The notes: a model not told the origin generated them from the sequence alone. 64,000 nt of DNA from an uncultured Actinomycetes bacterium (GCA_963722525.1 CAVRMM010000002.1:3335096-3399095); one strand, 5' to 3'; positions 1 through 64,000 are shown, counted from the first letter of the stretch. Program-made: numbers and translations.

Positions 1-771
1 CATCGCGCTGCGCATCGAGGACCTCGACCGGCGACCGCTGCCGGCCGGAGTGGGAGGCGCCACTGCGCGACGACCTCGCACTGGCTCGGCCTCGACTGGG
101 ACCTCGAGCAGCAGCGCCAGTCGGAGCGCGGCGCGGTCTACGACGAGGCGCTCGGCGGCCTGGACGCGGCGGGCGTCGTCTACGAGTGCTTCTGCACGCG
201 GGCCGAGGTGCGGGCGGCGTCGGCGCCGCACGGGCCGGAGCCGGTGTACCCGGGCACGTGCCGCGACCTGTCGGCGGCCGAGCGCGAGCAACGACGCGCG
301 GCGGGCCGGCGGTCGGCGTTGCGGCTGCGCGTCGAGCCGGAGCCGATCGTGTTCGACGACCTCGTCCACGGCCGCTGCGAGCGCGACGTCGCGGAGGGCG
401 GCGACTTCGTCGTCCGCCGCGCCGACGGCCTGCACGCCTACCAGCTGGCGGTGGTCGTCGACGACGGCGCGATCGGCATCACCCACGTGCTGCGCGGCGA
501 CGACCTGTTGTCGTCGACACCGCGGCAGCTGCTGCTGCAGCGGCTGCTCGGGCTGCCGGCGCCGGTGTACGCGCACGTGCCGCTGATGCGCGCGCCGACC
601 GGCGAGCGGCTGGCGAAGCGCCACGGCGACGAGACGCTGCAGTCGCTGCGCGCGGCGGGACGCACGCCCGAGCAGGTGATCGGCGAGCTCGCCGCCTCGA
701 TCGGCCTCGCGACCGAGGGCGAGCAGCTGACGGCGGCCGCGCTCATCCCGCGCTTCGCGCTCCCGCGGTAA
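1..771 (+). pseudogene. gluQ: glutamyl-Q tRNA(Asp) synthetase (GluQRS), 5' end cut by window edge; frame changes twice in nt ~45-80
   Basis: Frame 2 reads IALRIEDLDR, frame 3 PEWEAPLRDDL, frame 1 HWLGLDWD...VYECFCTRAEV...YQLAVVVDD...VLRGDDLL...AKRHG to the stop at 769-771. These are class I GluRS-like motifs of the truncated GluQRS family. Confidence 0.8.
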
Positions 772-780
772 CCTGACCCG

Positions 781-1305
781 ATGGGCATCGTCATCGAGAA
801 CGAGTTCACCGTCGCCGCCGCACCGGATGACGTCTACCAGCTGCTGACCGACGTCGAGCGCGTCGCTCCCACCATCCCCGGCGCGGAGGTGCTCGGCCGG
901 CGTGAGGACGGCGCCTACGACGCCAAGGCGACCGTGAAGATGGGCCCGATGTCGCTCACCTACAAGGGCACGGCCGAGATCACGGAGTCCGACCCGGTCG
1001 CCCGCACGGCGGTGCTGAAGGCGAAGGGCACCGACCAGAAGGGCCAGGGCACGGCGCAGGCGCTGATGTCGATGGCCGTGGAGCCCGACGGCGACGGCAG
1101 CCGCGTGAAGATGTCGAGCGACATCCTCGTCTCGGGCCGCGTCGCGCAGATGGGGCGCGGCATCATGGAGAACGTCGCGACGCGCATGATCGGCGAGATG
1201 GCGAAGGCGCTCGAGGCGACGCTGCAGACCGGCGAGACGGTGCGGGCGGAGACGCCGGGGATGGGCGCCGTGCTCGGATCGATCTTCCGCCGCAAGGACG
1301 ACTGA
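781..1305 (+). CDS. SRPBCC-fold protein, CoxG (carbon monoxide dehydrogenase subunit G)-like
   Basis: Intact 174-aa ORF. N-terminus IENEFTVAAAPDDVYQLLTDVERVAPTIPGAEV and the MGPMSLTYKGTAEI pattern are typical of the CoxG family. Confidence 0.75.
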   Translation: MGIVIENEFTVAAAPDDVYQLLTDVERVAPTIPGAEVLGRREDGAYDAKATVKMGPMSLTYKGTAEITESDPVARTAVLKAKGTDQKGQGTAQALMSMAVEPDGDGSRVKMSSDILVSGRVAQMGRGIMENVATRMIGEMAKALEATLQTGETVRAETPGMGAVLGSIFRRKDD

Positions 1306-1315
1306 CGCCGCGCGC

Positions 1316-2134
1316 TCAGCGCACGGTGCCGGACGTGCGGAACGCGGCGCCGGGAATGGTCTCCGACGCGATCAGGGCGGCCTCGGCGGCCTCCACCTGA
1401 TGCGCCACCAGCGCAGCCCGTTGCGCGTCCTCGACGTGCTTCGCGGGCTCCTGCCACAGGTACGGGTACCAGCGCGGCTCGTCCAGCACGAACCGGGCCT
1501 CGAGCGCGCGCCACATCTGCTCGCCGGTGATCAGGTTGTGCTGCTGCCGCTTCTCGCCCCAGACCGACACGATCTCGTCGGCGTCGGTGAGGCCGGTGCC
1601 GGCCGGCACGACGCCCGCCTGCGTGAGCGAGCCGGTGATCGAGGCCAGCCAGGTGGCGGTCGCGCGGTCGATGCGCTCGGCGCAGAACTCGTCGATGATC
1701 ACGACGCCGCCGGGGGCGAGCAGCAGCGCGGCGCGCTCGGCGGCCGCCCCGACGTCGTCCATGTGGTGCAGCGACCGGCCGAAGCGGATCGCGTCGAACG
1801 AGCCGTCGTGCAGGTTGTCGGCGCCGAACGACGTGTGCAGCACGGTCGCCTCCACGCCCGCCAGCGTGCGGCGGGCGACCGTGCAGGCCTCCTCGGAGGT
1901 GTCGAGCGCCGTCACCTCGTGACCGGCGCGGGCCAGTTCCAGGGCGACGGTGCCGTAGCCGGCGCCGACGTCGAGCACGCGCCGCCGGCCCTCGGTCGCC
2001 CGCAGCGCAAAGGCCACCGCCGGTTGGTAGAACCGCAGCACCAGCGCCGGATGGCGCCAGAGCGTCGCCCCCAGGTCTGGCCGGGGACGAAGCGCGGCCA
2101 GATCGGCCATGAGGTCGGAGACGGTCGCGCTCAC
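1316..2134 (-). CDS. class I SAM-dependent methyltransferase
   Basis: Intact 272-aa ORF with SAM-binding motif I VLDVGAGYGTVALELA and post-I acidic residue (VTALD). Confidence 0.8.
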   Translation of the reverse strand: MSATVSDLMADLAALRPRPDLGATLWRHPALVLRFYQPAVAFALRATEGRRRVLDVGAGYGTVALELARAGHEVTALDTSEEACTVARRTLAGVEATVLHTSFGADNLHDGSFDAIRFGRSLHHMDDVGAAAERAALLLAPGGVVIIDEFCAERIDRATATWLASITGSLTQAGVVPAGTGLTDADEIVSVWGEKRQQHNLITGEQMWRALEARFVLDEPRWYPYLWQEPAKHVEDAQRAALVAHQVEAAEAALIASETIPGAAFRTSGTVR

Positions 2135-2185
2135 GCGCTTCGAACACTACCGGTAGCCGGTTCCCCGGAAAGTAGGATTCGGCCG

Positions 2186-5326: not shown

Positions 5327-6086
5327 ATGTCCGTTGTTCAACCTCCCCCCGCTCCCACGTCCACGGAGATTGTCGTCGAAGGGCGCAACCTGACGAAGGT
5401 CTACGGCTCCGGTGACGCCGAGGTGCACGCCCTCGCGGGCGTCTCGATCTCCTTCCCGCGCGGCCAGTTCACGGCCGTGATGGGGCCGTCGGGTTCGGGC
5501 AAGTCGACGATGATGCACTGCCTCGCCGGACTCGACACGCCCACCAGCGGCGAGGTCCTGATCGAGGGCAAGGACATCACGAAGGCGTCCGACTCCGAGC
5601 TGACGCTGATCCGGCGCGGCAAGGTCGGCTTCATCTTCCAGTTCTTCAACCTCCTGCCGATGCTCACGGCCGAGGAGAACATGGAGCTGCCGCTGCGCCT
5701 CTCCGGCACGGCCGGTGGACGAGGCGTGGAAGAAGGAGCTGATCGACGCGATCCGCCTCGGCGACCGTCTGCATCACCGGCCGGCCGAGCTCTCCGGCGG
5801 CCAGCAGCAGCGCGTCGCCGTCGGCCGTGCCCTGCTGACGCGGCCCGCGATCATCTTCGGCGACGAGCCGACGGGCAACCTCGACTCCAAGACCAGCGCC
5901 GAGGTGATGACGCTGCTGCGCCACTCGGTGGACGAGTTCGGCCAGACGGTCGCGATCGTCACCCACGACCCGCGCGCTGCCAGCTACGCCGACCGCATTG
6001 TCTTCCTGCAGGACGGCCTGATCGTCCGCGACGAGCCGCGCATGAGTTCCGACGACATCCTCGACGTCATGAAGGGCCTGGAGTAG
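5327..6086 (+). pseudogene. ABC transporter ATP-binding protein (MacB/LolD/FtsE-like), one frameshift near 5705-5715
   Basis: Frame 2 carries Walker A GPSGSGKST and the Q-loop up to LRLSGTA. Frame 3 (from 5715) carries LSGGQQQRVAVGRAL, Walker B IIFGDEPTGNLD and H-loop VTHD. Confidence 0.9.
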
Positions 6087-6090
6087 CAGC

Positions 6091-8656
6091 GTGCGACAGG
6101 TCATCGTCCGCGGCTTCCTCGGCCGCAAACTCCGCTCCGTCCTGACGGCGCTGGCGATCATCCTCGGTGTCGCCATGATTGTCGGATCGGCCGTCCTCGA
6201 CGGAACAGATCCGCGGCGCCTTCGACGGCATCTTCCTGCAGGCCCGCAAGGGCACGGACGTCGTCGTCACCAAGAAGGCGACGTTCACGGACGACACCGG
6301 CTCGACGACGGTCCCGTTCGACGAGAACCTGATCGCCAAGGTGCAGGCCGTGACCGGCGTGCAGCAGGCAGTCGGCTCGGTCGTGCAGCGTCTCGGCCGT
6401 CCCGATCACGATCAAGAACGGCAAGCCCGATCCGCTCACGCCGAGCGGTGGTGCACCCGCCCTCGGCAACTCGGTCGCGCCGGCGCCATTCGACCCGACG
6501 ACCATCGTCGACGGCAAGCAGCCGAGCGCGGCGAACGAGGTGTCGCTCGAGGAACGCACGGCGGACAAGGGCGACATCAAGGTCGGCCAGCAGATCGGGC
6601 TGGCGACGTCGACCGGCGTGCATCCGGTGACGGTGGTCGGCATCTTCAAGTTCGCGGGCTCGGTCGGTGGTGCCACGCAGGTGTTCGTCACGTTCCAGGA
6701 CGGCCAGCAGTGGTTCGAACGCACCGGCCAGGTGGACGAGATCGACGTCGAGGCAGCGGCGGGCGTGTCGGAGGCGGAGTTGCGCGACAGCGTGGCCCAG
6801 GCGTTGCCCGGGCTACACCGTGCGCACCGGCGTCGAGCAGGCCAAGCAGGAGTCGGCCGACATCGGCGGCTTCGTCGACATCCTCGGCTACATCCTGATC
6901 GCGATCGGCGTCGTCTCGACGCTCGCCGGCGCGTTCATCATCTTCAACACCTTCTGGATCACGGTCGGCCAGCGCATCAAGGAGCTCGGGCTGTTGCGCA
7001 CGTTCGGCGCCTCGCGGCGCCAGCTGCTGACGAGTGTGATGGCCGAGGCGTTGCTGGTCGGCGTGATCGCGTCGGTGGTCGGCATCTTCGCCGGGCTCGG
7101 CGTCGCGAAGCTGATCGCCCTGCTGTTCGACGCGATCGGCTTCGGCTTGCCCGTCGGCAGCCTCAACCTCGGCGTCGGCACGATCATCGTCGCGATGGTG
7201 ATCGGCATCGGCGTGACGCTGGTCGCATCGTTCGTGCCGGCGTTCCGGTCGACCGAAGATCCCGCCCGTCGCGGCGATCCGCGAGGGCGCGCAGCTGCCG
7301 CCCGGCTGGCTCGCGCGCAAGGGCAAGATCATCGCGCCCATCGTCGCGATCCTCGGTCTCGCCATCGTCGCCGTCGGCCTGTTCGTCGTCGACGGCACGG
7401 CAGCGGTGCTGATCTCGCTCGGCGCCGGCGCCCTGCTGCTCCTGCTCGGGGTCGCGCTGACAGCGCCGTCCGTGGTGCCGATCCTGGCCCGCACGATCGG
7501 CTACCCCGGCGTGAAGTGGGGCGGCATTCCCGGCCGCATCGCGCGCGAGAACGCCGAGCGCAACCCGTCTCGCACGGCGGTGACGGCCGCCGCGCTGATG
7601 ATCGGCATCTTCCTGGTCAGCTTCGTGGCGGTGTTCGCGGCCGGCCTGAAGAAGAGCATCAGCGACGTGCTGTCGACCGACCTGAAGGCGCAGCTGTTCG
7701 TCTCCAACTCGGTCGGCGGCGGCGGCGCGCGCCGCTGCAGCCGGAGCTCGCGCAGGAGATCGCCGCCGTGCCGGGCGTCGCCGCCGTGGCCCCGACCAGC
7801 TTCGTCGCGGCGAAGGTCGTGCCGTCGGGCACGCGACATTCCGGTGTCGTCGGCCTCGCCCGAGTTCGCCGACGCCTACCGGCTGCGCTGGGTCGACGGC
7901 TCCGACGACGGTCGTTCGGAACCTGGAGGCGAACCAGGGCATCCTCGACGAGGACACCGCCAAGGACCTCAAGGCCACGGTCGGGTCTCGCGGTCACGGT
8001 CGAGGCCCGGAACGGCACGAAGGAGACCTACGACGTCGCCGGCATCGTCGAGGGATCGAACCTCGTCTCCGGCCTCCTGACATCACCCGAGGGCCTGCGC
8101 CGATGTCGACAACCAGGGCGTCGCGTTCATGTTCGTGGTCACCGACCCGACGGCCGAGGTCGGCACGGTGCAGGCCGCGGTGCAGACGGTGGCCGAGGCG
8201 TCGAACCCGCTCGCCAACGTGCAGTCGAACCAGGAGGTGATCGACGACATCTCCGGTCAGATCAACTCCGTCGTCTTCCCGCTGTACGCGCTGCTCGCGG
8301 TGATCGTGGTGATCTCGATCGTCGGCATCATCAACACGCTGTTGCTGTCGGTGTTCGAACGGACGAGGGAGATCGGCCTCCTGCGGGCGGTCGGCACGAC
8401 CCGTCGACAGGTGCGGCGGATGGTGCGCTACGAGAGCGTGATCACGTCGGTCATCGGCGCCACGCTCGGGGTGGTGGTCGGCGTCGTGTTCGGCGGCATG
8501 GTGATCTACCGCATCGACGAGATCCCGTTCGCCTTCCCGACCGGGCAGATCATCGCGTTCTTCGTCGTGGCGATCATCGCCGGCATCCTGGCGGCGATCC
8601 TGCCCGCCCGCCGGGCGGCGCGGCTCGACGTGTTGTCCGCGCTGCAGTACGAGTGA
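6091..8656 (+). pseudogene. ABC transporter permease with two FtsX domains (MacB-type), about nine frame changes
   Basis: Recognisable segments switch frames at about 6185, 6390, 6825, 7255, 7725, 7825, 7905, 7985 and 8100. Both FtsX modules are visible (FNTFWITVGQRIKELGLLRTFGASRRQL and NTLLLSVFERTREIGLLRAVGTTRRQV). Confidence 0.85.
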
Positions 8657-8704
8657 CGACCCGGCGGCGGGCGGGATCGCCACCGGGGAAGTAGGATCGG
8701 CGGC

Positions 8705-10609
8705 GTGCGCCGCCTCTATCTGATCGCCATCGGCATCTCGATGCTCGCGGCCGCCGCTCCTGCGGCGGCCGCGGTGCGTCTGAAGCCCTGCACCGACACG
8801 CCCGACGGCCCCGGCGCGCTCTGCGGGTCGATCAGGGTCCCCCTCGACCGCAGCAACCCGGCGCTCGGGCGGATCACGGTGGGCTTCGAGCTCTACCGGC
8901 GCACCGACCGCCGCAAGCCGCGGCTCGGCACGATCGTGTCGGTCGAGGGCGGCCCCGGCTACTCGACCACGTCCGGCCGGGCCCTGCGCCTGTCGTCGCA
9001 CGGGCCGCTGCTCGACCGGCGCGACCTGCTGCTCGTCGACCCGCGCGGCGTCGGCCGCTCGGCGCCGATCGACTGCCCGCGGCTGCAGAACTACATCGGC
9101 GACTACATCAAGGCCGGCGGCGCCTGCGGCCGGCAGCTCGGCAAGACGGCGCACCTGTACGGCTCCGGCCCGGCCTCCGACGACCTCGCCGACGTGCTCG
9201 GCGCCCTGGGCGTCGGCAAGATCGACCTGTACGGCGACTCCTACGGCACGTTCCTCGCCCAGACCTTCGCGGTCCGCCACCCGGCCCGGGTGCGCTCCCT
9301 GGTGCTCGACGCCGCCTACGCCGTCGAGGGCCTGAACCCGCTCTACCCGGAGTACGGCCCGGCGTTCCGCCGTGCCGTCCAGCTGGTCTGCGAGCGCAGC
9401 CCCGCCTGCACGGCCGCGGGCATCGACCCGGTCGGCGTGCTCGCGGCGCTGGCGGCCGACGTGCGCGCGAACCCGCGGACCGTGTCCGCCCCCGACGGCG
9501 ACGGCATCCTGCGCCGCGTTCGCGTCGACCCGCAGACCGTCGTCCAGACGGTCTTCGGCGCCGGCTACGTGACCGTCTCGTGGCGCGACCTGATCGGCGC
9601 CGCTCGCTCGTGGCTGGCCGGCGACCGCCGTCCGTTCGGGCGCCTGGCGGCCGAGACGCTCGGCGACCCTGACATCGTCGGCGGCGACGTGCGCGACTAC
9701 TCCGAGGGGCTCTACCTCGCCGTCACGTGCCACGACTACCCGCAGGCGTGGGACGTCAACGCCCCGATCGGCGTGCGCCGCGACCAGTGGGAGGCCGCGC
9801 GCGCCGCCCTGCCGCCCGACACGTTCGCTCCGTTCACCACCATCGAGTGGACAACGCTGCCGATCGAGGGCCTCGACGCCTGCCTGGAGTGGCCGGCCCC
9901 GCCGCGCTTCGACCCGCCGATCGTGCCCGGCACGCCGTACCCGGCGGTGCCCGTGCTGGTGCTGAACGGCGACCTCGACATCGTCACCACCACCGACGAG
10001 GCGCAGGCCGCCGCCGCGCGCTTCCCGAACGCGACGTACGTCGAGATCCATAACTCCGTGCACGTGACGGCGCTCGGCGACCGGGATCACTGCGCGTCCG
10101 AGATCATGTGGCGGTTCGTGCGTACGCTGTCGGCCGGCGACACCAGTTGCCGGACGCGCGTGCCCGAGGTGCGGGCGATCATCGAGTTCCCGAAGTCGTA
10201 CGCCGACGTGACGCCCGCCACGCCGCGCGCCGGCAACGGCGCGTCGGTGCGCGCGCGCCAGGTGGCGGCCGCAGCCGCGATGACGGTCGCCGACGCCGTG
10301 CAGCGCTGGCAGGTCAACTTCTCCGGCGTCAGCCGCGGCCTGCGCGGCGGGCACTGGAGCTACTCCGGCGACCGTAAGACCCGCTTCGAGTTCGACGCCA
10401 CGCGGTTCGTGGGCGACGTGAGAGTGACGGGCCACGCGACCTGGAACCTCGACACCGGCCGCATCACCGGCAGCGTCCGGACACGCGGCCCCGGCGGCCT
10501 GCCGGGCCGGGTCCGGTTCAGCTGGACGCTCGCGCAGCCGCACGCCGTCGCGCAGCTGCGCGGCACGGTCGGCGGCAACCGCCTCGACGCCACGATGGTC
10601 GCCCCGTAG
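8705..10609 (+). CDS. secreted alpha/beta hydrolase (S33 / tripeptidyl-aminopeptidase-like)
   Basis: Intact 634-aa ORF. Signal peptide MRRLYLIAIGISMLAAAAPAAAA, GGPGYS oxyanion region, nucleophile elbow GDSYGT. Confidence 0.8.
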   Translation: MRRLYLIAIGISMLAAAAPAAAAVRLKPCTDTPDGPGALCGSIRVPLDRSNPALGRITVGFELYRRTDRRKPRLGTIVSVEGGPGYSTTSGRALRLSSHGPLLDRRDLLLVDPRGVGRSAPIDCPRLQNYIGDYIKAGGACGRQLGKTAHLYGSGPASDDLADVLGALGVGKIDLYGDSYGTFLAQTFAVRHPARVRSLVLDAAYAVEGLNPLYPEYGPAFRRAVQLVCERSPACTAAGIDPVGVLAALAADVRANPRTVSAPDGDGILRRVRVDPQTVVQTVFGAGYVTVSWRDLIGAARSWLAGDRRPFGRLAAETLGDPDIVGGDVRDYSEGLYLAVTCHDYPQAWDVNAPIGVRRDQWEAARAALPPDTFAPFTTIEWTTLPIEGLDACLEWPAPPRFDPPIVPGTPYPAVPVLVLNGDLDIVTTTDEAQAAAARFPNATYVEIHNSVHVTALGDRDHCASEIMWRFVRTLSAGDTSCRTRVPEVRAIIEFPKSYADVTPATPRAGNGASVRARQVAAAAAMTVADAVQRWQVNFSGVSRGLRGGHWSYSGDRKTRFEFDATRFVGDVRVTGHATWNLDTGRITGSVRTRGPGGLPGRVRFSWTLAQPHAVAQLRGTVGGNRLDATMVAP

Positions 10610-10612
10610 GGA

Positions 10613-11680
10613 CTAGCTCATCGGGACTTGCCGCTGGATGTGCGGCCCCACGCGCTCGAAGATCTCCTCGAGGCTCGGCCCCGTGATCGTCAGCCCGTGG
10701 TTCTTCAGTCCCACGATCGCGCGGCCCGGGTCGGGCGCGGCGCGCACCAGCTCCGCCACGGCGTCGGCCAGCTCGGCCGTGCCGCACGGGAAGTTGATCT
10801 CGGTCGCCGCGATGCCGTCGACCCACGCGTGGACGTGCATGATCGCGCCCACCTCGGGGTGCTCCAGGTAGATCTTCCAGTGCTCGATCGCGTCGACGGA
10901 GACGCGGCGCGGCTCGATGCCGGGCGGCACCGACAGCACCATCGCGCGCTCCTCCGGCACGTAGCCGGTGACCATCAGGATGTCGCGCCCGACCTCGCGG
11001 AGGTTCGACTTGTCGACGCCCGACGCGCTCATCCAGAACCGGTTCGGGTCCTTGCGCGCGGAGAGGTTGCCGTACGAGAGGCCGCCGATCGAGTAGAGGC
11101 GCTTCACGTGGGCGAGGTCGCGGGCCGAGAGGATCTCGTCGATCGGCCACGGCGCGGGCAGCAGGTTCAGCTTCTCGAGCTGCTCGCCGGCGGCCGTCAG
11201 CGACGCCGTGATCTCGTCGCCGTCCCACAGCTCGGGCTCCAGGTCGGGCGTCCAGATGTTCTCGATCACGAGGTTGGACTCCGCGAGCGGCGCCAGGCGC
11301 TCGACCACGCGGTCGTAGAACGAGTCGGGGCCGTCGGCCACGCGCACCTCGTAGTTGCCCTGCTCGAGCGTCAGGAACCGCGCCATCACGTCGGGCACGA
11401 CGCACGCGGACAGGTTCGACAGCGCCTTCAGCAGCACCGGGTAGCCGATGCGCACGAAATCGTCCGGGGGCGACGCCGCGTACCAGAACGACGCGACGAA
11501 GGTCCACTTGTTCGTGCGCCGGTACGGGCGTGCGTCGGCGGCGTCGACGAAGTTGCAGACCAGGGTGGCGTCGTCGGGCGACTCGAGCTTTTCGTAGCCG
11601 CGGCGAAGCAGCGCGGCCTCGAGACCTGCGCGGAACGTCGTCAGCTCCGGAGGGACGGTGCCGTGGAAGGCGAACTCCAT
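10613..11680 (-). CDS. class II aldolase/adducin-domain protein
   Basis: ATG at 11680 (MEFAFHG) inside a longer ORF. The C-terminal domain has FWMSASGVDK and a metal-binding AIMHVHAW pattern of class II aldolases. Confidence 0.7.
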   Translation of the reverse strand: MEFAFHGTVPPELTTFRAGLEAALLRRGYEKLESPDDATLVCNFVDAADARPYRRTNKWTFVASFWYAASPPDDFVRIGYPVLLKALSNLSACVVPDVMARFLTLEQGNYEVRVADGPDSFYDRVVERLAPLAESNLVIENIWTPDLEPELWDGDEITASLTAAGEQLEKLNLLPAPWPIDEILSARDLAHVKRLYSIGGLSYGNLSARKDPNRFWMSASGVDKSNLREVGRDILMVTGYVPEERAMVLSVPPGIEPRRVSVDAIEHWKIYLEHPEVGAIMHVHAWVDGIAATEINFPCGTAELADAVAELVRAAPDPGRAIVGLKNHGLTITGPSLEEIFERVGPHIQRQVPMS

Positions 11681-12440: not shown

Positions 12441-12514
12441 CTTCCCCCTGCACCCGCGCACCTTGCTAGTGTTCGGACGGACGACAGCTCGGCCCGTGAG
12501 CAGTCGTACGGGGG

Positions 12515-50982: not shown

Positions 50983-50991
50983 CGCCCGCCG

Positions 50992-53605: not shown

Positions 53606-53645
53606 GGGGGGCCCTCCGGTTAGGCGATCGGACGAGGACCAACGT

Positions 53646-53670
53646 AGGTTCTTAACCTTTGGATAACCTT
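53646..53670. promoter_or_regulatory. AGGTT/AACCT palindrome plus third half-site upstream of the MCO gene
   Basis: AGGTTCTTAACCT at 53646-53658, then ATAACCTT at 53663-53670, in an AT-rich stretch 40-65 nt upstream of the TTG start. Confidence 0.3.
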
Positions 53671-53748
53671 CGGACTGGTACCACCGCGCGCAAATGCGTG
53701 CGCCGGCTCGCAGAAACCGGCGTCGAGCGCTCGGTGCGCCACCCGCGC

Positions 53749-54819
53749 TTACACGTTGAAGCGCACGTTGACGACGTCGCCGTCCGCGACCGTGTAGTCG
53801 CGGCCCTCGACGCGCATCACGCCGCGCTTCAGAGCCTCGGCGTGCGTCTTCGTCAACAGCATGTCGTCGGTCGTGATGACCTCGGCCCGGATGAACCCGC
53901 GGGCGATGTCGGAGTGGATCTTCCCGGCCGCCTCGACGGCGCTGGATCCGCGCCGCAGCGGCCACGCGCGGGCCTCCTTCGGGCCGACGGTGAAGAACGT
54001 GATCAGCTCGAGCAGGCGGAAGGCGGCGCGCGCCACCCGCGGCATGCCGGCCTCCTCCTGCCCGATCTCGGCCAGGAACGCGGCCCGGTCCTCGGGGTCC
54101 TCCATCTCCGCCAGGTCGGCCTCGAAGCGCGCGGCGACCGGCACCACGTCGGCGTCGCCGGCATATGCCTGCAGCGCCGCCACCGCCTCGGCGTCGCCCT
54201 CCTCCGAGGTGTTCGCGACGTAGACAAGCGGCTTCAGCGTCAGCAGGTCGACGCCCGGCGGCACCGGCTCGCCGAACAGCCGCGCGGGCTGACCGCCGTC
54301 CAGGTGCGCGAGCAGCCGGCCGAGCACGTCGGCCTCGGCGGCCGCCGCCTTGTCGCCCGTGCGGGCGGCCTTGGCGAGGCGCTCGATGCGGCGCTCGACG
54401 ATCGCGTGGTCGGCGAGGATCAGCTCGAGGTCGACCGCCTCGGCGTCGGCGACCGGATCGACGCGGCCGTCGACGTGGAACACGTCGGCGTCGGGAAACG
54501 TGCGCACCACGTGGAGGATCGCGTCGGTGGCGCGCAGGTGGCCGAGGAACTCGCCGCCGAGCGATCCGCCCTTCGCGCCGCCGCGCACCAGGCCCGACAC
54601 GTCGGACAGCTGGATCGTCGCGTAGATGGTCTCGCGCGACTCCGCCACCGCGGCCAGATCGTCGAGCCGCGCGTCGGGCACCGGCGCGACGCCGATGTTG
54701 GCCGACGACTGCGTGGCGGCGTACGCCGTCACCTCCGCGCCCGCGTTCGTGAGCGCGTTGAAGACGGAGGTCTTGCCGACGTTGGGAAGGCCGACGATGC
54801 CGATCTCGAGCGAGGCCAT
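53749..54819 (-). CDS. ychF: redox-regulated ATPase YchF (Obg-family)
   Basis: Intact 356 aa. G1 GIVGLPNVGKTS, DVSGLV, C-terminal TGS-like domain FFTVGPKEARAW...GDVVNVRFNV. Confidence 0.95.
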   Translation of the reverse strand: MASLEIGIVGLPNVGKTSVFNALTNAGAEVTAYAATQSSANIGVAPVPDARLDDLAAVAESRETIYATIQLSDVSGLVRGGAKGGSLGGEFLGHLRATDAILHVVRTFPDADVFHVDGRVDPVADAEAVDLELILADHAIVERRIERLAKAARTGDKAAAAEADVLGRLLAHLDGGQPARLFGEPVPPGVDLLTLKPLVYVANTSEEGDAEAVAALQAYAGDADVVPVAARFEADLAEMEDPEDRAAFLAEIGQEEAGMPRVARAAFRLLELITFFTVGPKEARAWPLRRGSSAVEAAGKIHSDIARGFIRAEVITTDDMLLTKTHAEALKRGVMRVEGRDYTVADGDVVNVRFNV

Positions 54820-54841
54820 AGGCCGAGCAGCGTACGGCGGC

Positions 54842-57176
54842 CTAGCGCGCGAAGGCGCCGATCGCCGACTCCGCGATCGCCTCGCCCGAGATGCCGAGCC
54901 AGCCGTACACGGCGGGCTGCGAGCCGCACTGGCCGAAGCGGTCGACGCCGAGCGGAACGAGCGCCATGCCGAGGGCCGCCGCGAGGAAGGCGAGGTGCTG
55001 CGGCGCGGCGTCGTGCGCCGTGATGAGCGGCCGCCCGACCTCCGCCGGCGTCACGATCGGCGGCAGCGTCCGGGCCCGGAAGTGGCGGAACACGAGGTCG
55101 GACGACGTGACGTTGAGGACGGCGGCGCCGATGCCCTCCTCGGCCAGCAGGTCGCGCGCCGCGCAGCGCCTCCGGCAGCAGGGCGCCGCAGCTCGCGATC
55201 ACGCAGCGCCAGCGGTCGAGCCCCTCGCGGCGCCTCGACCAGGCGGTAGGCGCCCGACAGCACGCCGGCCCGCACCGCGGCGCGGTCCTTCTGCGCCAGC
55301 AGGTCGGCGAACGGCTGCTGGCTGACGGGTGTCGTCGAGAGCCGCAGGTACGCCGGACTCGCCGTGCTCGCGGTCGCACGTGCCGCGGATCGCGTCGAGC
55401 AGGATCCACTCCGTCTCGAGCGCGAAGCACGGCTCGTAGAAGCGCAGGCCGGGCAGCTCCGAGCCGATCGACGGCGTGATGGCGGACTGGTGCGCGCCGC
55501 CCTCGCGGGACAGCGAGACGCCGGACGGCGTGCCGGCGAAGACGAACTTCGAGCCGGAGTAGGTGCCGTAGATGAGCGCGTCCAGACCGCGGCAGACGAA
55601 CGGGTCGTAGACGGTGCCGATGGGCAGCAGCTGCGTGTCGTGCAGCTCGGCGGAGAGGCCGAGCTGGCCGAGCAGCAGGAACAGGTTCATCTCGGAGATG
55701 CCGAGCTCGATGTGCTGGCCGTCGCGGGCCCGGCTTCCAGCGCAGCGGCGACACCTCGTCCGACTCGTACACCTCCTCGGCGGTCGGCGCGAACACGCCG
55801 CGCTTGTTGATCCAGCCGCCGAGGCCGGTCGAGATGGACACGTCGGGCGACGTCGTGACGAGGTGCTTGCGCGACGTCGTCGTAGCGGGAGCAGGTCGAC
55901 GCAGCGCGCGCGCGAACGCCTCCTGCGAGGTCGTGTCGCGCGTCGGCGTCGGGCCGAACTCGACCGGCACGGCGGCGCCGTCGAGCGTCACGCGCGGGCG
56001 GTTCTCCGGCTCGGTCAGGCGCGCGGCGGCCGCGGCGCAGACGGCGCCGGCGGGCGTGGCCGGGCGAAGCCGGCCCACTCGTCGTCGGGATCGGCGAGCG
56101 CCAGGCGCAGCGCGTCGATCTGGTCGCCGGAGAGCACCGCGGAGTGGTTCATCGGGTGCCCGGCGATCGGCAGGCCCTAGCCCTTGATGGTGAAGGCGAA
56201 GATGACGCTAGGGCGCTGACGCTCTGCGTCGCAGCGGTCGAGCGCGTCGAGCACGTCGCCCAGGTCGTGGCCCGGCCAGGTCGCCGATCAGGTCGGGCAG
56301 CTCCTCGTCCGAGTAGTCGCGCGAGCACGCGCTCCAGGGCTGCCGCGACTCGCCGCGCGGGCGCCGTCCACGACCAGCGACGCGCAACTGGCTCGCCGGC
56401 CGCCGCAGCAGGCTCTGGTACTCCGGGTTCGGCATGTCGTCGATGCGCCGGCGCAGCGTGTCGCCGCCGGGCAGCTCGTAGGCGGCCCGCAGGCTGCGGG
56501 CCGTACTTGAGCGTCTCGACGTGCCAGCCGTGCTCGGCGGAACACGTTCGCGAGCTCGCCGGAGCGGATGCCCGGGATCACGCGGTCGAGCGACTGGCGG
56601 TTGAAGTCGACGATCCAGGTGACGTTGCCGAGGTCGCGGCACGACGGGTCGGCGATGGCCTCCCACACGTTGCCCTCGTCCAGCTCGGCGTCGCCGATCA
56701 GCGCGACGAACCGCCGGTCGCTGGCGCGGCCGAAGTGCGCGCGAGCGTAGCGGTCGACGACGCCCGCGAACAGCGGCGCCGCGGCGCCGAGGCCGACCGA
56801 GCCGGTGGAGAAGTCGATCGGGTCGGGATCCTTCGTGCGGCTGGGGTAGGCCTGCAGGCCGCCGAAGTCGCGCAGCGTCGGCCGAGGTACGCGCGGTCGA
56901 GCCGACCGAGCAGGTAGTTGATCGGCGTGCAGCACCGGCGAGGCGTGCGGCTTGACCGACACGCGGTCGCCGGCGCGCAGCCAGTGGAAGTAGAGCGCCG
57001 TCATCACGGTCACGACCGAGGCCGACGAGGCCTGGTGGCCGCCGACCTTGAGGCGGTCCGCGGTCGGGCCGCTCGCGGTTGGCGTAGTCGATCATCCGCG
57101 TCGCCAGCCAGAGCACGCGACGCTGGATCTCGTCGAGCTCGGCGAGGGGAGGGGCGTCGGTGCGCGTCACGCTCAT
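54842..57176 (-). pseudogene. aceE: 2-oxoacid (pyruvate) dehydrogenase E1 component, homodimeric AceE-like, many frameshifts
   Basis: MSVTRTDAPPLAELDEIQRRVLWLATRMIDYAN, ThDP motif IGDAELDEGNVWEA...NVTWIVDFNRQSLD, ISEMNLFLLLGQLG and SREGGAHQS are spread over three minus frames. Confidence 0.75.
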
Positions 57177-57273
57177 GGCGGGCAGCATACGCAGCCGCGG
57201 CCATCCGGTTCGCCAGGTTCCGGCGACACCCTGTTTGCAGGACTTTTTCCGAACCACGGGTAGCCTTCGATGC

Positions 57274-57679
57274 ATGGCTGATTGGCAGAGCGCCGACCTT
57301 CGTTCGATTCCCGCCGTCGGACCGGGTGCCGATCCCGCGCTCCTGGGAGGGCTTCGCGCCCGACCCCGCCGCGTACGTCGCCGGCTGGCACGGGGTGCGC
57401 GAGCACTTCGGCCTGAGCGGCTTCGGAGCCAACGCGGTGACGCAGGAAGCGGGCGGCGTGCTGGTCGTGCCGCACGACGAGCTGGAGTTCGGCGGGCAGG
57501 AGGAGCTGTACGTCGTCATCGAGGGGCGCGCGCGCTTCACGTGCGACGGCGAGGACGTCGAGATCGGCGCCGGCGAGGTCGTCGCCGTCGCGGCGCGGGT
57601 GCGACGCAGCGCGGTCGCGCTCGCCTCGCCGACGACGCTCCTCATGGTTTCGGGCGGCACCGTGCCGCCCAATCTCTAG
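57274..57679 (+). pseudogene. cupin-domain protein, probable N-terminal frameshift near 57320
   Basis: MADWQSADLRSIP is in frame 1; the cupin core (FGANAVTQEAGGVLVVPHDE...QEELYVVIEGRARF...GAGEVVAV) is in frame 2. Confidence 0.6.
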
Positions 57680-59674
57680 TGGCATCCGCGCGCCGAACGC
57701 CGACGGCCCTCCTGGTCGCCGGCATCGTGGCGCTGCTCGTCCCCGCCGTGGCCCACGCCGCCGATCCGCCCGCGCCGCTGCAGGCGGCCGACTACTGGGC
57801 GGCGGCCGACACGCTGGCCGCCGATCTCGACCCGAGCTGGGACGAGGGCGCCGGTGCGTTCCGCGAGTCGTCGCGCGGCCTCAGCACGCACGTCAACGTC
57901 GCGATGCTGCTCACCTACTCGCTCGCCGCGCGGGCCGACCACGTGGGGCCGTCGCGCCATGACGAGCGCGCCGTGCGCATCATCTCGCGGCTGATCCGCT
58001 CACCCGCCTTCCGGTCGGCGAGCAAGGGACGGGCGGCGCAGGGCCATGCCCCCGGCTGGCGAGCCGACCTCGTCAACACGGCCTCGTCGCAGCACGTGTC
58101 GACCGACGCACGGGTGGTCGAGGCGCTCGCCGCCGCGTACGTGGCGGCGCCGCAGCTGGCCCTCGACGCGAACACCCGCAGCCTGATCCGCAGCCGCGTC
58201 TGCGCGGTCGCTCGCTCGCGCTTCTTCGCGAAGCCGCGCCTGAACCAGGTGAACTGGATGGCCGACACGTACGCCGCGTGCGAGCGCGTCGGCGGCGGCT
58301 CGGACCTGCTGCGCGGCGCCTACCGCAAGTGGCTCAGCTGGTTCCTCGTCCACGCCCGCACCCGGACGGCGCCCAAGGGCAGCACCAACCTGAACGCCGG
58401 GCTCGGCCTGCACTACCTGCCGCAGCGCACCCGGGCCGCGACTGCGAACCGGATGCCGCCGTCGGAGTACGGCAACATCCTGCTGACGGTGCTCGGCTCG
58501 TACGACACGGCCGTCGAGCACGGCATGCGGCCGCTGCCCGGATCGCTCGTCAACGTCGCCCGGCGCTGGCAGACGCGCGTCCTGTACGGCGACTGGACGC
58601 ACGCCGGCTATCTCAACTGGGACACCGGCCTCGGGTTCGACCGCTGGCACCTGCGCCGGTACTGGGGCTGGGCCGCCGAAGGGCTCGTCACCATCGCGAC
58701 GTCGCGGCGGCTGCGCGCCTCCCCGGCCGTCGCCGGTCAGGCGAAGCAGACCCTCGACGCCGCGCTGCGGCTCTACCTCCGCTTCCGCTCCGACCCGTCG
58801 TCCGGCAGCGTGTCGACGTCGTTCGGCGTCGTCTCGACGTCGTCCGACGCGGTCGGCGACCGGCGCCTCGTCCCGGCCCGGTTCGCCGCCATCGCCGCCC
58901 GCGCCGCGAGCGTCGGACTGGGCTCGGCCGCCACGGGCCCGCGGGTGCCGGCGGTGTACGGCTACGACCCCGACGTCGGCCGGCTCGCGGTCTCGACTCG
59001 CACCTACTCGGCCGCCATCGTCGCACCCTCCACGCTGGTCGGCAACGGCGGCGCCGAGCTGTCGCGCCTCTACGACTCCACCGGGCAACCGGTCTCCGGC
59101 ACGGGCGGCAGCGGCCCGTCGCTGACCTCGTTCGGGCTCCGCGTGATCCGTCGCGGCCGGGTGCTGGCCGAGACCCAGCCAGGCCGGGCCTGGCCGGCGC
59201 GCGCCGCCACGATGCGCGCCGCCGTCCCGGCCGGCGGCGGCAGGTTCGGCACCCTCCGCAGCACCGCCACCGTGGCCGGCATCGGCGCCGTCAAGGTTCG
59301 CGTCGAGCACGTCTTCGGAGCCGACGACGTGCGCGTGCGCCACACGGTCCTCGGCGGCGCCGGCGCGACCGCGGCGCTGCGGTTCCCGGCCTACGGCGCC
59401 GCCGGCTTCACGTCGCGCGGCGGGCTTCGGCCCGGAGATCCCGATCCCGGCCGCCGGCCTGCCGGCCGGGCACGCGCTGCACGTCAAGCTCTTCACCGGC
59501 CGCGGCTACCGGGTGATCTTCGCCACGCCCCTGCCCGCCGGATCGAAGGTCCGGGTGGTCAAGGCGCGGCCGTCGCGGTCGGCGCCCTGGACGACCCGGA
59601 CGATGGTCGTCGACGTGCCGCTGAAGAGCGGTCGCGTGCTCGTCGACTACCGCCTCGTCCCGGATCCTGTCTAG
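57679..59674 (+). pseudogene. secreted protein of unknown function (about 665 aa), C-terminal frameshift near 59420
   Basis: GTG overlaps the cupin TAG. Signal peptide ALLVAGIVALLVPAVAHA. After FPAYGAAGFTSR the protein-like reading (GFGPEIPIPAAGL...VLVDYRLVPDPV) is in another frame and ends at the TAG at 59672-59674. Confidence 0.6.
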
Positions 59675-60585
59675 CGCGTCAGCGCGATCCCGGCCAGTAG
59701 CACGGCACCGCCGACAGCCGTCGACACGACGATCAGCAGCCGGACGAGATCGGAGCGCAGCCCGAAGACGCGCGAGAGCGTGATGATGTGGAACGCGACC
59801 GGCGCGGCCGCCGCGAGGATGAACACCGACGGCACGTCGACGCCGGTGCCCCGCGCCATGGCGAACACCATCAGCGGCGCCACGGCGTGCCGGATGCCGA
59901 GCGCCACCGCCCCCAGGCGGAGGTCGCGGAGGCCGTGCGAGACGCGCTGCAGCGGCAGCCCCAGGCCTAGCTGCAGGAGGCCGACGGGCCCCGACGCCGC
60001 GCCCGCGACGTTCCCGAGCGTCCGCGCGATGTCGGTCAGGTCGACGTGCGCGATGCGCAGCGCGATGGCGCCGACGGCGGCCACCAGCGGCGGGTTCAGG
60101 GCGGTGCGCAGCGCGGCGCGCACGCCGCTCATGCGGCTCGGCCGCTCGGCGCTGTGCAGCCGCGCGACGCTCATCGAGATCGCGATCCCCGGGACGCCGT
60201 AGTAGAACTGCGCGTAGAGCACCTGCAGCGCGAGGCCCTCGGCGCCGTACGCGAAGTTGGCGATCGGATAGCCGAGCGCGACGGTGTTGCCCCAGCCGGA
60301 GGCGAGCACCAGGGCACCGCGCTCGGCCTGGTCGTGGCTGACGAGGCGCGAGGCGCCGATCGCGATGCCGAGCACGAGCCACGACGAGACGGCGACGACG
60401 ATCAGCGACTCGATCAGCGTGCGGTCGATGTCGACGGTCGTGTACGCGTAGATCGCCGCCGCGGGCGCGATCGTCCAGAAGAAGGCCTCCCACGTCCAGC
60501 GCTGCAATTCGGCGTGCCGCGGGTGCCGCTGCAGCAGCAGACCGACGGCGAACGCCGCGGCGAGCAGAGGGGCCTCGAACGACAC
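59671..60585 (-). CDS. AEC-family (auxin efflux carrier-like) membrane transporter
   Basis: About 304 aa from GTG 60585 (alternative ATG 60627). 8-10 TM spans. Overall pattern resembles the AEC/Mem_trans family. Stop codons with the convergent gene share cTAG. Confidence 0.6.
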   Translation of the reverse strand: MSFEAPLLAAAFAVGLLLQRHPRHAELQRWTWEAFFWTIAPAAAIYAYTTVDIDRTLIESLIVVAVSSWLVLGIAIGASRLVSHDQAERGALVLASGWGNTVALGYPIANFAYGAEGLALQVLYAQFYYGVPGIAISMSVARLHSAERPSRMSGVRAALRTALNPPLVAAVGAIALRIAHVDLTDIARTLGNVAGAASGPVGLLQLGLGLPLQRVSHGLRDLRLGAVALGIRHAVAPLMVFAMARGTGVDVPSVFILAAAAPVAFHIITLSRVFGLRSDLVRLLIVVSTAVGGAVLLAGIALTR

Positions 60586-60616
60586 GAGGCGGAAGCTTGC
60601 CGGTACCGTCCCTGCC

Positions 60617-61253
60617 GTGGCGCTCATCCTGCACGCGAACCCCCGCTCGTCGAACGCGCAGAAGGTGCGCTTCCTGCTCGGGGAGCTGGGCCTCGAGGCC
60701 GAGATCCGCGAGGTGCCGTTCGGCGTGGAGCGCCCGGCGTGGCACCTGGCCGTCAACCCGGTCGGCGGCATCCCGGCGCTGGTCGACGGCGACGTGCAGC
60801 TGGCCGAGTCGCACGCCATCCTCCGCTACCTCGCGACGCGCGGAGGGCCGCACCGACCTGTACCCGCAGCACCTGGCCGAGCGGGCCCGCGTCGACTGGC
60901 TGCTGGACGGCATCGCGACGACCGTGCGCGAGGTGACGCGGCCGTTCGACGCCGCCGCGTACGGCTGGCGCCGGCGCCGCGGCATCGGCGCCGAGGCGCC
61001 CGCGGCCGACGGCGGCGCGGCGGCGCTGGCGGAGGCCGCGCCGACGCTGACCGCCTTTGCCGCGCTGCTCGATCCGGAGGCCTACGCGTGTCTCGGCCGG
61101 TTCACCCTGGCCGACGTCGCGGCCGCCCCCTACCTGCAACGGATAGTTGCGAGCGGAAATAGCCTCGTCGGTCTGGAGCGTTACTCCAGTTGGGCCACGG
61201 CGATCCTGCCGCGCGCCGCCTGGCAGGCGATCGCCACCGAGACTGGGGTCTGA
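60617..61253 (+). pseudogene. glutathione S-transferase-family protein, one frameshift near 60845
   Basis: The N-terminal thioredoxin-like domain (ILHANPRSSNAQKVRFLL...IPALVDGDVQLAESHAILRYLA) and the helical C-terminal domain (LYPQHLAERARVDWLLD...FTLADVAAAPYL) lie in different frames. Confidence 0.75.
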
Positions 61254-62129
61254 ATGTCCGTCGACGTCATCCACTTCACCGACCCGGCGTGTCCGTGGGC
61301 GTACTCGGCGGAGCCCGACCTGAATGCGCTCCGGTACCGGTACGGCAACGGCCTGCGCTGGCGGCGCGTGATGATCGGCCTGGCCGAGACGCACGAGCAG
61401 TACGACGGGCGCGGCTACAAGCCGGAGAAGTCGGCCCGCTCGCGGACGTCGTTCGCCCGCCGCTTCGGCATGCCGTTCCGGTTCGAGGCGCGCTCCCGCA
61501 ACCTCGGCACCGGCCTGCCGTGCCGCGCGGTCAAGGCGGCCGAGCTGCAGGACGACGACCTGGCCGAGGCGCTGCTGCGCGCGCTCCGGTTCGGCTACTT
61601 CGCGACGCCGCTGATGATGGACACCGACGACGCGATCCGCACCCAGGCCGAGACCGTCGCCGGCCTGGACGTCGACCGCCTGATGACCGACCTGAAGTCG
61701 GACGCGGTCGAGCAGGCGTACCAGGCCGACTGGGCCGAGACCCGGAACGCCGGCGTCACCGGCCGTCCGATGATCCTGCAGGACAAGCACGCCGACACCG
61801 ACGGCGCCGACCGCTTCACCGCTCCCAGCGTGCTGTTCGAGCGCGACGGCCGGCGGCTCGTCGCGGGCGGCTGGCAGTCGTTTGCCGTCTACGACGCGAT
61901 GGTCGCCAACCTGGCGCCCGAGCTCGAGCGGCGTGAAACGCCCGAGCCCGGAGATCTGCTGCCGCACTTCCCGCACGGCCTGACGACGCAGGAGGTCGCG
62001 GTCGCGTGCACCGCGAACCTGAAGGAGGTGCAGCGCGAGGAGACGCTGCGCAAGCTCGTCGGCCTCGCGTTCGAGGGGAAGGCGCGCCGCGTCGATGTCG
62101 GCGACGACGCGCTCTGGTTCCCCGTCTGA
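61254..62129 (+). CDS. DsbA-like thioredoxin-fold protein (single-Cys CPWA site)
   Basis: Intact 291 aa. VIHFTDPACPWAYSAEP N-terminus typical of the DSBA/FrnE/HCCA-isomerase family. Confidence 0.7.
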   Translation: MSVDVIHFTDPACPWAYSAEPDLNALRYRYGNGLRWRRVMIGLAETHEQYDGRGYKPEKSARSRTSFARRFGMPFRFEARSRNLGTGLPCRAVKAAELQDDDLAEALLRALRFGYFATPLMMDTDDAIRTQAETVAGLDVDRLMTDLKSDAVEQAYQADWAETRNAGVTGRPMILQDKHADTDGADRFTAPSVLFERDGRRLVAGGWQSFAVYDAMVANLAPELERRETPEPGDLLPHFPHGLTTQEVAVACTANLKEVQREETLRKLVGLAFEGKARRVDVGDDALWFPV

Positions 62130-62135
62130 CCGCTC

Positions 62136-63609
62136 CTACCGCACGGCGTCCGCGCCGGCGATCGCGTCGCGGACGGCGCTCGGGCGCCACACGGCGACCA
62201 CGATCACGGCCAGCGCACCTGCCATCAGCACCGCCGATCCCGTCAGCGCGGTGGCGATGCCGTGCGCCAGGTCGTGGCGCGCCGTGACGGCGTCGGTGGC
62301 TGCGGTCGCCGGCCCGCCGGCGGCGGCGAACACCGTCACCAGGATGCCGAGGCCGAGCGAGCCGCCCAGCTGGTGCGCGACGTTGACGAGGCCCGAGGCG
62401 GCACCCGCGTCGCGCTTCGCGACACCCGCCAGCCCGGCCGCCGTCAGGGGCGTGAACGCGGCGCCCATGCCGATGCCGAGCAGCAGCATCGGGATCGCGA
62501 GGCCGGGGAAGTACGGACGTGTCGACCGAGACCTGGCTGAGCCAGGCCATCCCGATCAGGGCCATCGACACGCCGCCGGTCAGGAGCACGCCGTCGCCGA
62601 CGCGTTCGGCGTAGCGCGGCACCGACCGGGCCACCGCGAACATGGCGACGGACATCGGCAGGAAGGCCATGCCGGCCTGCAGCGCGCTGAAGCCGAGCAC
62701 GCCCTGCAGATACTGCGTGACGAAGAAGAACATGCCGAACATGCCGCCGACCAGCAGTACGCGTGCCAGGTACGCGCCGGACCGCTGGCGACTCGCGAAC
62801 AGCCGCAGCGGGGTGATCGGCTGACCGGCGCGGCGCTCGGTCGACACGAAGGCGGCGAGCAGGATGGCGCCGGCGGCGAACGACGCGATGGTGCCGGCGT
62901 CGCCCCAGCCCTCGGCGGCGGTGCGGACGAAGCCGTACACCAGCCCGGTCATGCCGAGCGTCGAGGTGATGGCGCCGGCGAGGTCGAAGTGTCCCGTCGT
63001 GCGCGGGGTCTCCGGCAGGTGGCGCAGGGCGAGCGCGACGAGCGCGATGCCGACCGGGACGTTGATGAACAGGCCGAGACGCCACGAGACCCAGCTCGTG
63101 AGCATGCCCCCGAGCACGAGGCCGATGCTGCCGCCGCCGCTGGCGACGGCGCTGTAGAGGGCCAGCGCACGGGTGCGCTCGGCACCCTCTGCAAAGGTGG
63201 TCATGAGCAGCGCCAGTGCGGCCGGGGCGGCGATGGCGGCGCCGACGCCCTGCAGGGCGCGGGCGGCGAGCAGCAGACCGGCGGACGGCGCGAGGCCGCC
63301 GAGCAGCGAGGCGACGGTGAACACGGCGACGCCGGCCATGAACACACGGCGGCGGCCGAGGATGTCACCGGCGCGGGCGCCCAGCAACAGCAGGCCGCCG
63401 AAGGTCAGCGTGTAGGCGTTCTGCACCCACGAGAGGCCGGTGGACGAGAACCCGAGCGACTCGTGGATGTCGGGCAGGGCGGTGATGACGATCGAGGCGT
63501 CGAGGATGATCAGCAGGTACGTGGCGAGGATGATCACGAGCACCAGCGAGCGGTTGGCGTCACGATCGACGGGGCGGGCGGTGAACGGACGGGCGAGGAC
63601 GAACGACAT
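62136..63609 (-). pseudogene. MFS drug/H+ antiporter, DHA2 14-TMS family, one frameshift near 62500
   Basis: LDASIVITALPDI and GARAGDILGRRR motifs. After the SQVSVDTS region the TM reading continues in another frame (MLLLGIGMGAAFTPLTAAG...). Confidence 0.85.
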
Positions 63610-63647
63610 CGAGGACGAACCTTCTGGCGGAACGGAAGTGCTAAAGT

Positions 63648-63711
63648 GGAGGGCGCCTCCTCTTAGAGATACGGAGGCGACCTCCGGTTAGTATACGGAG
63701 GCATCCTCCGT
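63648..63711. promoter_or_regulatory. three tandem GGAGG-N3-CCTCC palindromes between divergent MFS and TetR genes (candidate TetR operators)
   Basis: GGAGGGCGCCTCC at 63648-63660, ACGGAGGCGACCTCCGG at 63671-63687, and ACGGAGGCATCCTCCGT at 63695-63711 (perfect 7-3-7). Centres are about 24-25 bp apart. Confidence 0.55.
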
Positions 63712-63743
63712 TTATCAAGCGGATTCCGAGAGTTCCCCGACCC

Positions 63744-64000
63744 ATGGCCTCTGACAGCACCGCTCCCACCGTCGTCTCCCGCCCGCTGCGCGCCGACGCG
63801 CGCCGCAACTACGACAAGCTGATCGCCGCCGCCCGCGAGGCGTTCACCGAGCACGACTCGACCGCGTCGCTCGAGGACATCGCCCGCCGCGCCCAGGTCG
63901 GCATCGGCACCCTCTACCGCCACTTCCCGACCCGCAAGGACCTGCTCGCCGCGGTGTACCAGGAGGAGGTCGAGGCGATCTGCCGCTCCGCCGACGAGTA
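63744..64000 (+). CDS. TetR-family transcriptional regulator, 3' end cut by window edge
   Basis: ATG at 63744. RRNYDKLIAAAREAFTEHDSTASLEDIARRAQVGIGTLYRHFPTRKDLL is a canonical TetR HTH. Confidence 0.9.
   Translation, partial: MASDSTAPTVVSRPLRADARRNYDKLIAAAREAFTEHDSTASLEDIARRAQVGIGTLYRHFPTRKDLLAAVYQEEVEAICRSADE

Follow-up and report, generated by a model that had tools for sequence, protein, structure and literature searches.

The 64,000-nucleotide stretch of DNA analyzed here (GCA_963722525.1 CAVRMM010000002.1:3335096-3399095, positions 1–64,000, hereafter the window), assigned to an uncultured Actinomycetes bacterium, contains about 160 reading-frame breaks, most of them packed into six short blocks that affect, among others, leuC and leuD, hyuA and hyuB, a TMADH-like flavin oxidoreductase gene and an AceE-type pyruvate dehydrogenase E1 gene. 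The clustered breaks are a technical artifact and a matter of data quality, not of biology, and their value is practical only. They are very probably consensus errors of sequencing or assembly in a segment carrying intact functional genes, the likeliest source being an incompletely corrected long-read (Nanopore-type), probably metagenomic, sequence. The original prediction had preferred locally poor sequence to selective gene decay, and this preference was borne out by the private nature of the insertions and deletions (indels), the intact genes of the relatives, the retained third-position pattern of substitutions, the insertion bias and an error signature known from a Nanopore metagenome-assembled genome (MAG).

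Frame switches were called from GC3 plotted by frame and from a codon-position hidden Markov model (HMM) with seven states, trained on lon and on the gene of a 634-aa hydrolase. The model switched frames in every block that had been named beforehand, while long stretches elsewhere kept a single frame, and the stitched segments gave readable proteins throughout the window; all of the listed breaks that were tested proved to be real, and DNA alignment to syntenic relatives served to place the indels. Where breaks were sparse, a blastx comparison with the relatives' proteins produced collinear chains with frame changes at 5710, 6198, 6385, 6810, 7260, 29333/29375, 30547, 42091, 42653, 44140, 49166–85 and 60842. 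The dense blocks were scored by DNA alignment, because blastx frame chains merge frames there. By a conservative rule, an indel was accepted when it recurred in the comparison with two short-read-type MAGs or with two contigs, or when the reference it was scored against had an intact open reading frame (ORF), and this trusted comparison covered 32.6 kb of the window. It yielded 145 frame-shifting indels, 131 of them single-base, with insertions outnumbering deletions by 112 to 33 (3.4:1); with some 13 further events outside the trusted part the total for the whole window came to about 160. The several dozen breaks counted originally were thus present, the dense blocks having been under-counted three- to fivefold.

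The indels were strongly clustered (index of dispersion 5.2 in 500-bp bins, chi-square p = 5e-36; 25 empty bins against 7 expected): six blocks of 1.2–2.6 kb, making up about 20% of the window, carried about 80% of them. Their density was graded, from approximately one per 40 nt in the TMADH-like gene through one per 70 in leuCD and one per 90 in E1 to one per 200 in the ABC transporter and hyu blocks, and isolated single errors were scattered between the blocks. Spacers were hit as well (41935, 43095, 43112, 45839 and 46152). Coding sequence was clean at 8.7–14.4, 16.3–25.6 and 39.05–41.9 kb, the first two of these stretches, with lon, having been correctly described as unbroken in the original prediction. 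That blocks take no account of gene boundaries, as it also stated, is true of four of the six (ABC transporter, helicase/HAD, hyuB/hyuA and XRE-leuCD with its spacer), while the TMADH-like and E1 blocks each lie within one gene; the claim that blocks extend over genes on both strands is weakened, depending as it does on a single outlying break in the EamA gene at 49164.

Syntenic relatives were located by scanning species-representative genomes with the clean acyl-CoA dehydrogenase of the window (40738–41970) and were mostly labelled Gaiellales (Actinomycetota). The G+C content is 72–75% along the whole window, and scans of the window for tRNAs and Rfam families gave no matches; the host is a high-GC soil actinobacterium (Gaiellales) and the segment is ordinary chromosome. 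Two relatives, L001 (JBKJIG010000006.1) and L003 (JBBQFB010000010.1), have MEGAHIT-style contig names of the short-read type. L002 (CAVTAC010000010.1, isolate MFD04651.bin.2.118) and L081 lie on the same contig, the latter spanning window positions 1–20476; L082 spans 7153–15350, the JGI contig L083 spans 48389–57197 and 59671–62111, and L013 is a more distant syntenic relative. L081–L083 and further loci (L084, L085, L088 and L089) were obtained by homology searches and contig look-ups, L085 being the one useful locus from a metagenome scan with the permease as the query. The closest relatives were approximately 91–92% identical to the window in nucleotides, and the best matches of its proteins in the searched collections were 92–94% identical, none exceeding 94%. 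The 75–80% identical relative L088 was used for ORF integrity and isolated sites only, because cheap-gap alignment to it creates many spurious gap pairs.

In the four-way alignment of the 35.5–50.5 kb region the window had 72 private frameshifting indels (59 insertions and 13 deletions), compared to 2 in L001, 6 in L003 and 10 in L002, and none of its indels was common to any relative. The ORFs broken in the window were intact in at least four independent assemblies of relatives, including HyuB (586 aa), HyuA (685 aa) and RpiA (223 aa) in L088, the TMADH-like protein in L001 (688 aa) and L003 (698 aa), LeuC in L001 and L003 (449 aa) and in L084 (450 aa), and E1 in L083 (772 aa). Since the relatives have full-length ORFs where the window has none, it is the window which is the outlier. 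Alignment to orthologues, proposed in the original prediction as the way of placing every indel, did place them, and the relatives encode in one frame the same proteins that the window does not. This also bears on recoding, i.e., programmed ribosomal frameshifting, transcriptional slippage or RNA editing that would read through the breaks. The only point in its favor is that the proteins read from the corrected frames are well conserved, while it would have to act at about 160 sites, up to 64 of them in a single gene, which have no common or slippery motif, are not conserved in any relative and also fall into spacers, so that its probability is negligible.

In indel-aware alignment the TMADH-like gene differed from L001 at 8.5% of positions, within the range of its clean neighbors (7.9–9.0%). 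The mismatches at codon positions 1/2/3 were 4.5/5.9/14.9% in this gene and 4.7/3.5/21.9% in E1, as against 2.8/2.5/27.4% in YchF, 2.3/1.3/12.1% in ACAD2 and 4.9/3.9/17.5% in the hydrolase, all three of them clean genes. The broken TMADH-like and E1 genes therefore keep the third-position pattern of purifying selection. In ACAD1, too, substitutions were neither raised nor distributed evenly among the codon positions. The accumulation of 20–60 indels by drift should have brought several-fold more substitutions at all positions, which were not seen. An apparent excess of evenly spread, window-specific substitutions, which at first sight pointed to neutral decay, was traced to stiff-gap MAFFT alignment scoring segments shifted by 1 nt as mismatches; the excess in the TMADH-like gene and E1 disappeared with cheap gaps.

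Genuine pseudogenization, in which the ABC transporter, hyuAB, the TMADH-like gene, XRE-leuCD, E1, rpiA and others would be inactivated and central metabolism would be decaying, is very improbable. In its favor, the sequence as it stands does have disrupted frames, a single gene is matched by each of two blocks and a three-gene operon by another, leuC differs additionally at the first two codon positions, and the assembly of a relative likewise has a broken TMADH-like gene. Nevertheless, substitutions are not raised in the TMADH-like gene and E1 despite 21–64 indels in each, and one indel per 33–42 nt without decay is not an evolutionary pattern. Bacterial pseudogenes are reportedly biased to deletion (Mira, Ochman and Moran 2001; Kuo and Ochman 2009), and the excess of single-base insertions found here runs in the opposite direction. 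Moreover, blocks begin and end inside genes and take in spacers, no indel is common to any relative, and a like signature is formed by scattered private errors in a Nanopore-only MAG, where even lon is hit. It is likewise conceivable, with a probability that we consider extremely low, that the indels are real and very recent, having arisen by local insertion-biased mutagenesis (e.g., by an error-prone polymerase acting on kb-scale tracts) which has just inactivated several operons, leaving no time for substitutions to build up, or, in a milder form, that the errors are technical and the blocks mark strain-variable or recombined operons.

The error signature itself was informative. Among the 53 private single-base insertions of the four-way set, 18 touched an identical base, and 20 of 59 (34%) did so after addition of the three-way set, the expectation being 56%. 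The run length at the 53 sites was 1 in 35 cases, 2 in 15 and 3 in 3 (23.7, 18.9 and 8.2 under the null), with no insertion in a longer run and 35 flanked by different bases on both sides. The inserted base was C or G in 76% of cases, and in 59% it came after its complement (G[C] or C[G]), where 32% would be expected. The blocks had a G+C fraction of 0.732, compared to 0.725 in the rest of the window, and 3.4 runs of at least 4 bases per kb as against 4.7. The association of the indels with homopolymers, which the original prediction had suggested testing, was therefore not found, and G+C content or homopolymers as a cause of the blocks were rejected, given the similar GC, the fewer runs and the avoidance of homopolymers by the insertions. 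The break near 15700, taken originally for a lost C in a C-run, is a 1-nt deletion at 15701 that aligns to a T in L081.

The same signature was present in one relative. The private indels of L002/L081 were nearly all single C/G insertions, and the genes that they break, the hydrolase, lon and the helicase among them, are unbroken in the window: 24 of 26 insertions were C or G, 81% followed the complement and 19% touched an identical base, again with 56% expected. Nineteen single-base insertions fell into the equivalent of window 7.4–14.6 kb, where the window is clean, and more were found in L081 over the equivalent of 0–20.5 kb, including three in lon. The source of this contig, the Microflora Danica long-read MAGs, is Nanopore-only and was assembled with Flye followed by one Medaka round, its authors noting Nanopore-associated errors at lower coverage (PMC12313526); indels in Nanopore consensus sequences depend on coverage and fragment gene calls by frameshift (PMC9262707). 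The match in signature is the main reason for attributing the errors of the window to a similar long-read consensus process, and it is from this match that we infer the platform. Looked at on its own, this MAG contig (CAVTAC010000010.1/ERZ25039524 contig_4807) had its own single-base C/G insertions at about one per 0.4–1.5 kb, with the result that its gene calls for lon, the 634-aa hydrolase, the helicase, the FtsX permease and the TMADH-like gene are split.

Under a long-read origin, read support would be adequate over most of the contig and thin or mixed over kb-scale stretches. In these, support might go down to one or a few reads or the reads might stem from a mixture of strains, so that errors of individual reads would survive in the consensus, most of them one spurious C or G next to the complementary base. 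The graded densities of the blocks together with the scattered single errors fit differing local depths on a modestly supported contig. Several points weigh against this explanation. Low depth over the blocks is something we infer, and a purely random dip in depth would not predict that the TMADH-like and E1 blocks each sit within a single gene. Nor would it predict that, of the 9 private single-base insertions which L002 has in the 35.5–50.5 kb region, 7 lie in the TMADH-like gene (L002 12966–15036), at other positions than in the window; this coincidence may be due to chance or to a family- or sequence-specific cause, such as reads cross-recruited from paralogues or co-occurring relatives. 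In leuC the mismatch by codon position was 9.7/6.6/17.0%, whereas the relatives differ from each other by 1–2% at the first and second positions; some of this excess has the look of genuine divergence, lying in segments that read as a canonical-looking LeuC variant, and some could come from substitution errors or misaligned stretches. Finally, classical Nanopore and 454 errors are homopolymer deletions, while those of the window are non-homopolymer insertions, and the Nanopore-type label comes from the match to one Nanopore-only MAG.

A different technical origin is possible, although rather unlikely: a hybrid or patched assembly, in which accurate short-read contigs were bridged, gap-filled or only partly polished with raw long reads, or a consensus of mixed co-occurring strains or of paralogous reads drawn to conserved multi-copy gene families, without simple low depth. 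The sharp alternation of clean 3–9 kb stretches with dirty patches of 1.2–2.6 kb would fit such an origin. So would the location of the worst blocks in families for which paralogues or strain variants are common (ABC transporter, hydantoinase, flavin oxidoreductase, aconitase-type LeuCD and transketolase-like E1) and the unusual divergence of the XRE-leuCD block; the richness in errors of the TMADH-like gene in an independent Nanopore MAG also hints at a sequence- or family-specific cause. On the other hand, GC-driven dropout of short reads is not indicated, because the blocks match the rest in GC and homopolymer density. Other multi-paralogue families, such as the acyl-CoA dehydrogenases and MFS transporters, are nearly clean, and the isolated errors beyond the blocks are more easily reconciled with a consensus that is imperfect throughout than with pristine short-read contigs.

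The positions of the blocks, of the isolated breaks and of two clean controls are collected in Table 1.

Table 1. Blocks of frame-shifting errors, isolated frame breaks and clean control genes in the window.
Feature	Position	Strand	Observation	Basis
Block 1	5715–8107	+	Middle of ABC ATPase gene through most of FtsX/MacB-type permease gene; ~13 indels	blastx frame chain vs. L085; gaps vs. L085/L081/L082
Block 2	14489–15702	+	Helicase C-terminal region and start of HAD-IIA hydrolase; ~7 indels	Three-way alignment; alignment to L081
Block 3	30546–33128	-	hyuB, one insertion (30546); hyuA, ~12 indels (31407–33128)	Gaps vs. L002, L003 and L088
Block 4 (densest)	37015–38846	-	Within TMADH-like flavin oxidoreductase gene (36869–38969); 44 indels, conservative	Alignment to relatives
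Block 5	45839–48531	+	Upstream spacer, XRE/cupin regulator, leuC, leuD	Alignment to relatives
Block 6	55161–57066	-	Within AceE-type E1 gene (54842–57176); 21 indels (18 insertions, 3 deletions)	Alignment to L083
gluQ-like tRNA synthetase gene	31–80	+	Single-base insertions, G at ~31 and A at ~80; frame moved twice	Three-frame translation; alignment to L081; HMM switch at 30
MauE-like membrane protein gene	25685–25695	-	Single frameshift near codon 32	L089/L088 orthologue: N-terminus in one frame, remainder in another
rpiA	29292–29374	+	1-nt insertions, T at 29292 and C at 29374	Gaps vs. L088; blastx frame 3, then 2
Acyl-CoA dehydrogenase gene	42092–42653	-	1-nt insertions, G at 42092 and C at 42653	blastx chain; four-way alignment
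Thioredoxin/TPR gene	43469–43592	+	1-nt deletion at 43469 and 1-nt insertion at 43592; compensating pair, 41 codons out of frame	Alignment
DHA2-type MFS gene	44143	-	Single C insertion near 3' end	Alignment; blastx
EamA transporter gene	49164	-	Single G insertion	Alignment; blastx
~660-aa secreted protein gene	59416–59420	+	Single frameshift ~85 codons before end	Match to homologue P0300
GST-like gene	60842	+	Single G insertion	blastx frame 2, then 3, vs. L083; gap list
DHA2 MFS transporter gene	62512	-	Single frameshift	HMM switch; stitched protein
lon (clean control)	16936–19221	-	770 aa, intact; broken in relative Nanopore MAG by that assembly's own insertions	
MFS, TetR and acyl-CoA dehydrogenase genes (clean control)	39050–41930	-	Zero frameshifting indels	Comparison with three relatives

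Block 1 consisted mostly of 1-nt insertions (5715, 6198, 6391, 6806, 7255, 7834, 7911 and 7985), with deletions at 7727, 7742, 8096 and 8107. In block 2 an insertion at 14489 was followed by several indels at 15136–15328 in a low-complexity linker and by the 1-nt deletion at 15701/2, across which the stitched HAD-IIA protein matched its NCBIfam HMM in one stretch. The breaks predicted in this helicase/HAD region were present, except that at 15596 the frame changes because one gene normally gives way to the next, the stop codon of the helicase and the GTG start of HAD-IIA overlapping at 15593–15600 (GAGTGACG). The count for the TMADH-like gene in block 4 depended on the gap cost, being 44 by the conservative criterion (39 insertions and 5 deletions, about 8:1) and 64 with cheap gaps against the intact ORF of L001 (48:16, about 3:1), which corresponds to one indel per 33–42 nt. 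In block 5, 33 supported indels (23 insertions and 10 deletions) were located between 46152 and 48531, and about 43 were obtained by a single-reference count. The XRE-leuC-leuD region (46150–48650) also diverges from three relatives more than its surroundings do, and an additional canonical-looking LeuC segment (…PEDWEAAV…), absent from the relatives, is present at 47385–47500; the operon may be a recombined or more divergent allele besides being error-ridden.

The stitched RpiA matched positions 6–219 of the 223 in the RpiA HMM (NCBIfam) as one stretch, and the twice-frameshifted acyl-CoA dehydrogenase was 96–98% identical to that of L001 in each of the three frames. The DHA2 MFS transporter broken at 62512 matched TIGR00711 at positions 3–408 in one stretch across the junction at residue ~349. 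The match of the secreted protein to homologue P0300 runs in the +0 frame as far as residue ~574 and continues in the +1 frame over P0300 residues 575–657 (E = 2e-26 for this part). The clean control lon belongs to a minus-strand tandem at 16360–19221, in which infA (IF-1), a gene of an HxlR-type regulator and lon are all intact.

Apart from the frame breaks, several differences in gene content and composition were observed. At the 43938–43950 junction all three close relatives carry a gene of a 385-aa signal-peptide protein between the thioredoxin/TPR and MFS genes (L001 6847–8004) which the window lacks; the difference of ~1.17 kb is either one of gene content or an assembly deletion. In L003 an insertion of ~1.17 kb, apparently an extra gene, lies between the TMADH-like and MFS genes at the equivalent of 39022–39036, with no counterpart in the window, L001 or L002. 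Conversely, the window has at 57198–59670 a cupin gene and the gene of the ~660-aa secreted protein, both absent from L083, in which an AEC transporter gene abuts E1. An NCBIfam search found no family for either of these two proteins, and the secreted one has hundreds of homologues in metagenomes. The multicopper oxidase region (52000–53600) has 64% G+C, compared to 72–75% around it, and is present in L083 too; it was perhaps acquired horizontally long ago.

Read literally, the window would suggest the loss of leucine biosynthesis, ribose-5-phosphate isomerase and a pyruvate dehydrogenase E1, a false metabolic inference of a kind that is carried over into databases, predictions of auxotrophy and tallies of pseudogenes. 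The contig is therefore flagged here as needing polishing or frameshift-aware annotation. The analysis also puts on record, for high-GC long-read MAGs, a C/G error signature that is biased to insertion and lies outside homopolymers, and demonstrates that codon-position analysis against relatives can tell error from decay without reads.

The window resembles genomes in reductive evolution (Mycobacterium leprae and recent host-restricted pathogens) in having many frameshifted genes, including those of central metabolism, beside intact neighbors. Real pseudogenes, however, are characterized by relaxed selection, deletion bias, larger deletions, stop codons made by substitution and lesions shared within a lineage, and none of these traits was seen in the window. 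The homopolymer errors of 454, Ion Torrent and Nanopore R9 sequencing concentrate in runs of at least 4 identical bases. They are similar to those of the window in being single-base indels that give apparent frameshifts (PMC9262707), but, unlike in these platforms, the insertions of the window avoid runs. A further likeness is to the errors of Nanopore-only MAGs, where single-base indels break up gene calls, are coverage-dependent and are spread with uneven density over a contig (PMC12313526; PMC9262707). The literature on such errors stresses homopolymer indels, to which those of the window have no link, and the worst block of the window has an error of about 2.5–3%, near the level of single reads, compared to approximately 0.1–0.25% in the related MAG. 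Yet L002/L081, the one such MAG examined, shares with the window the same bias to insertion, the same preference for C or G beside the complementary base and the same location outside homopolymers.

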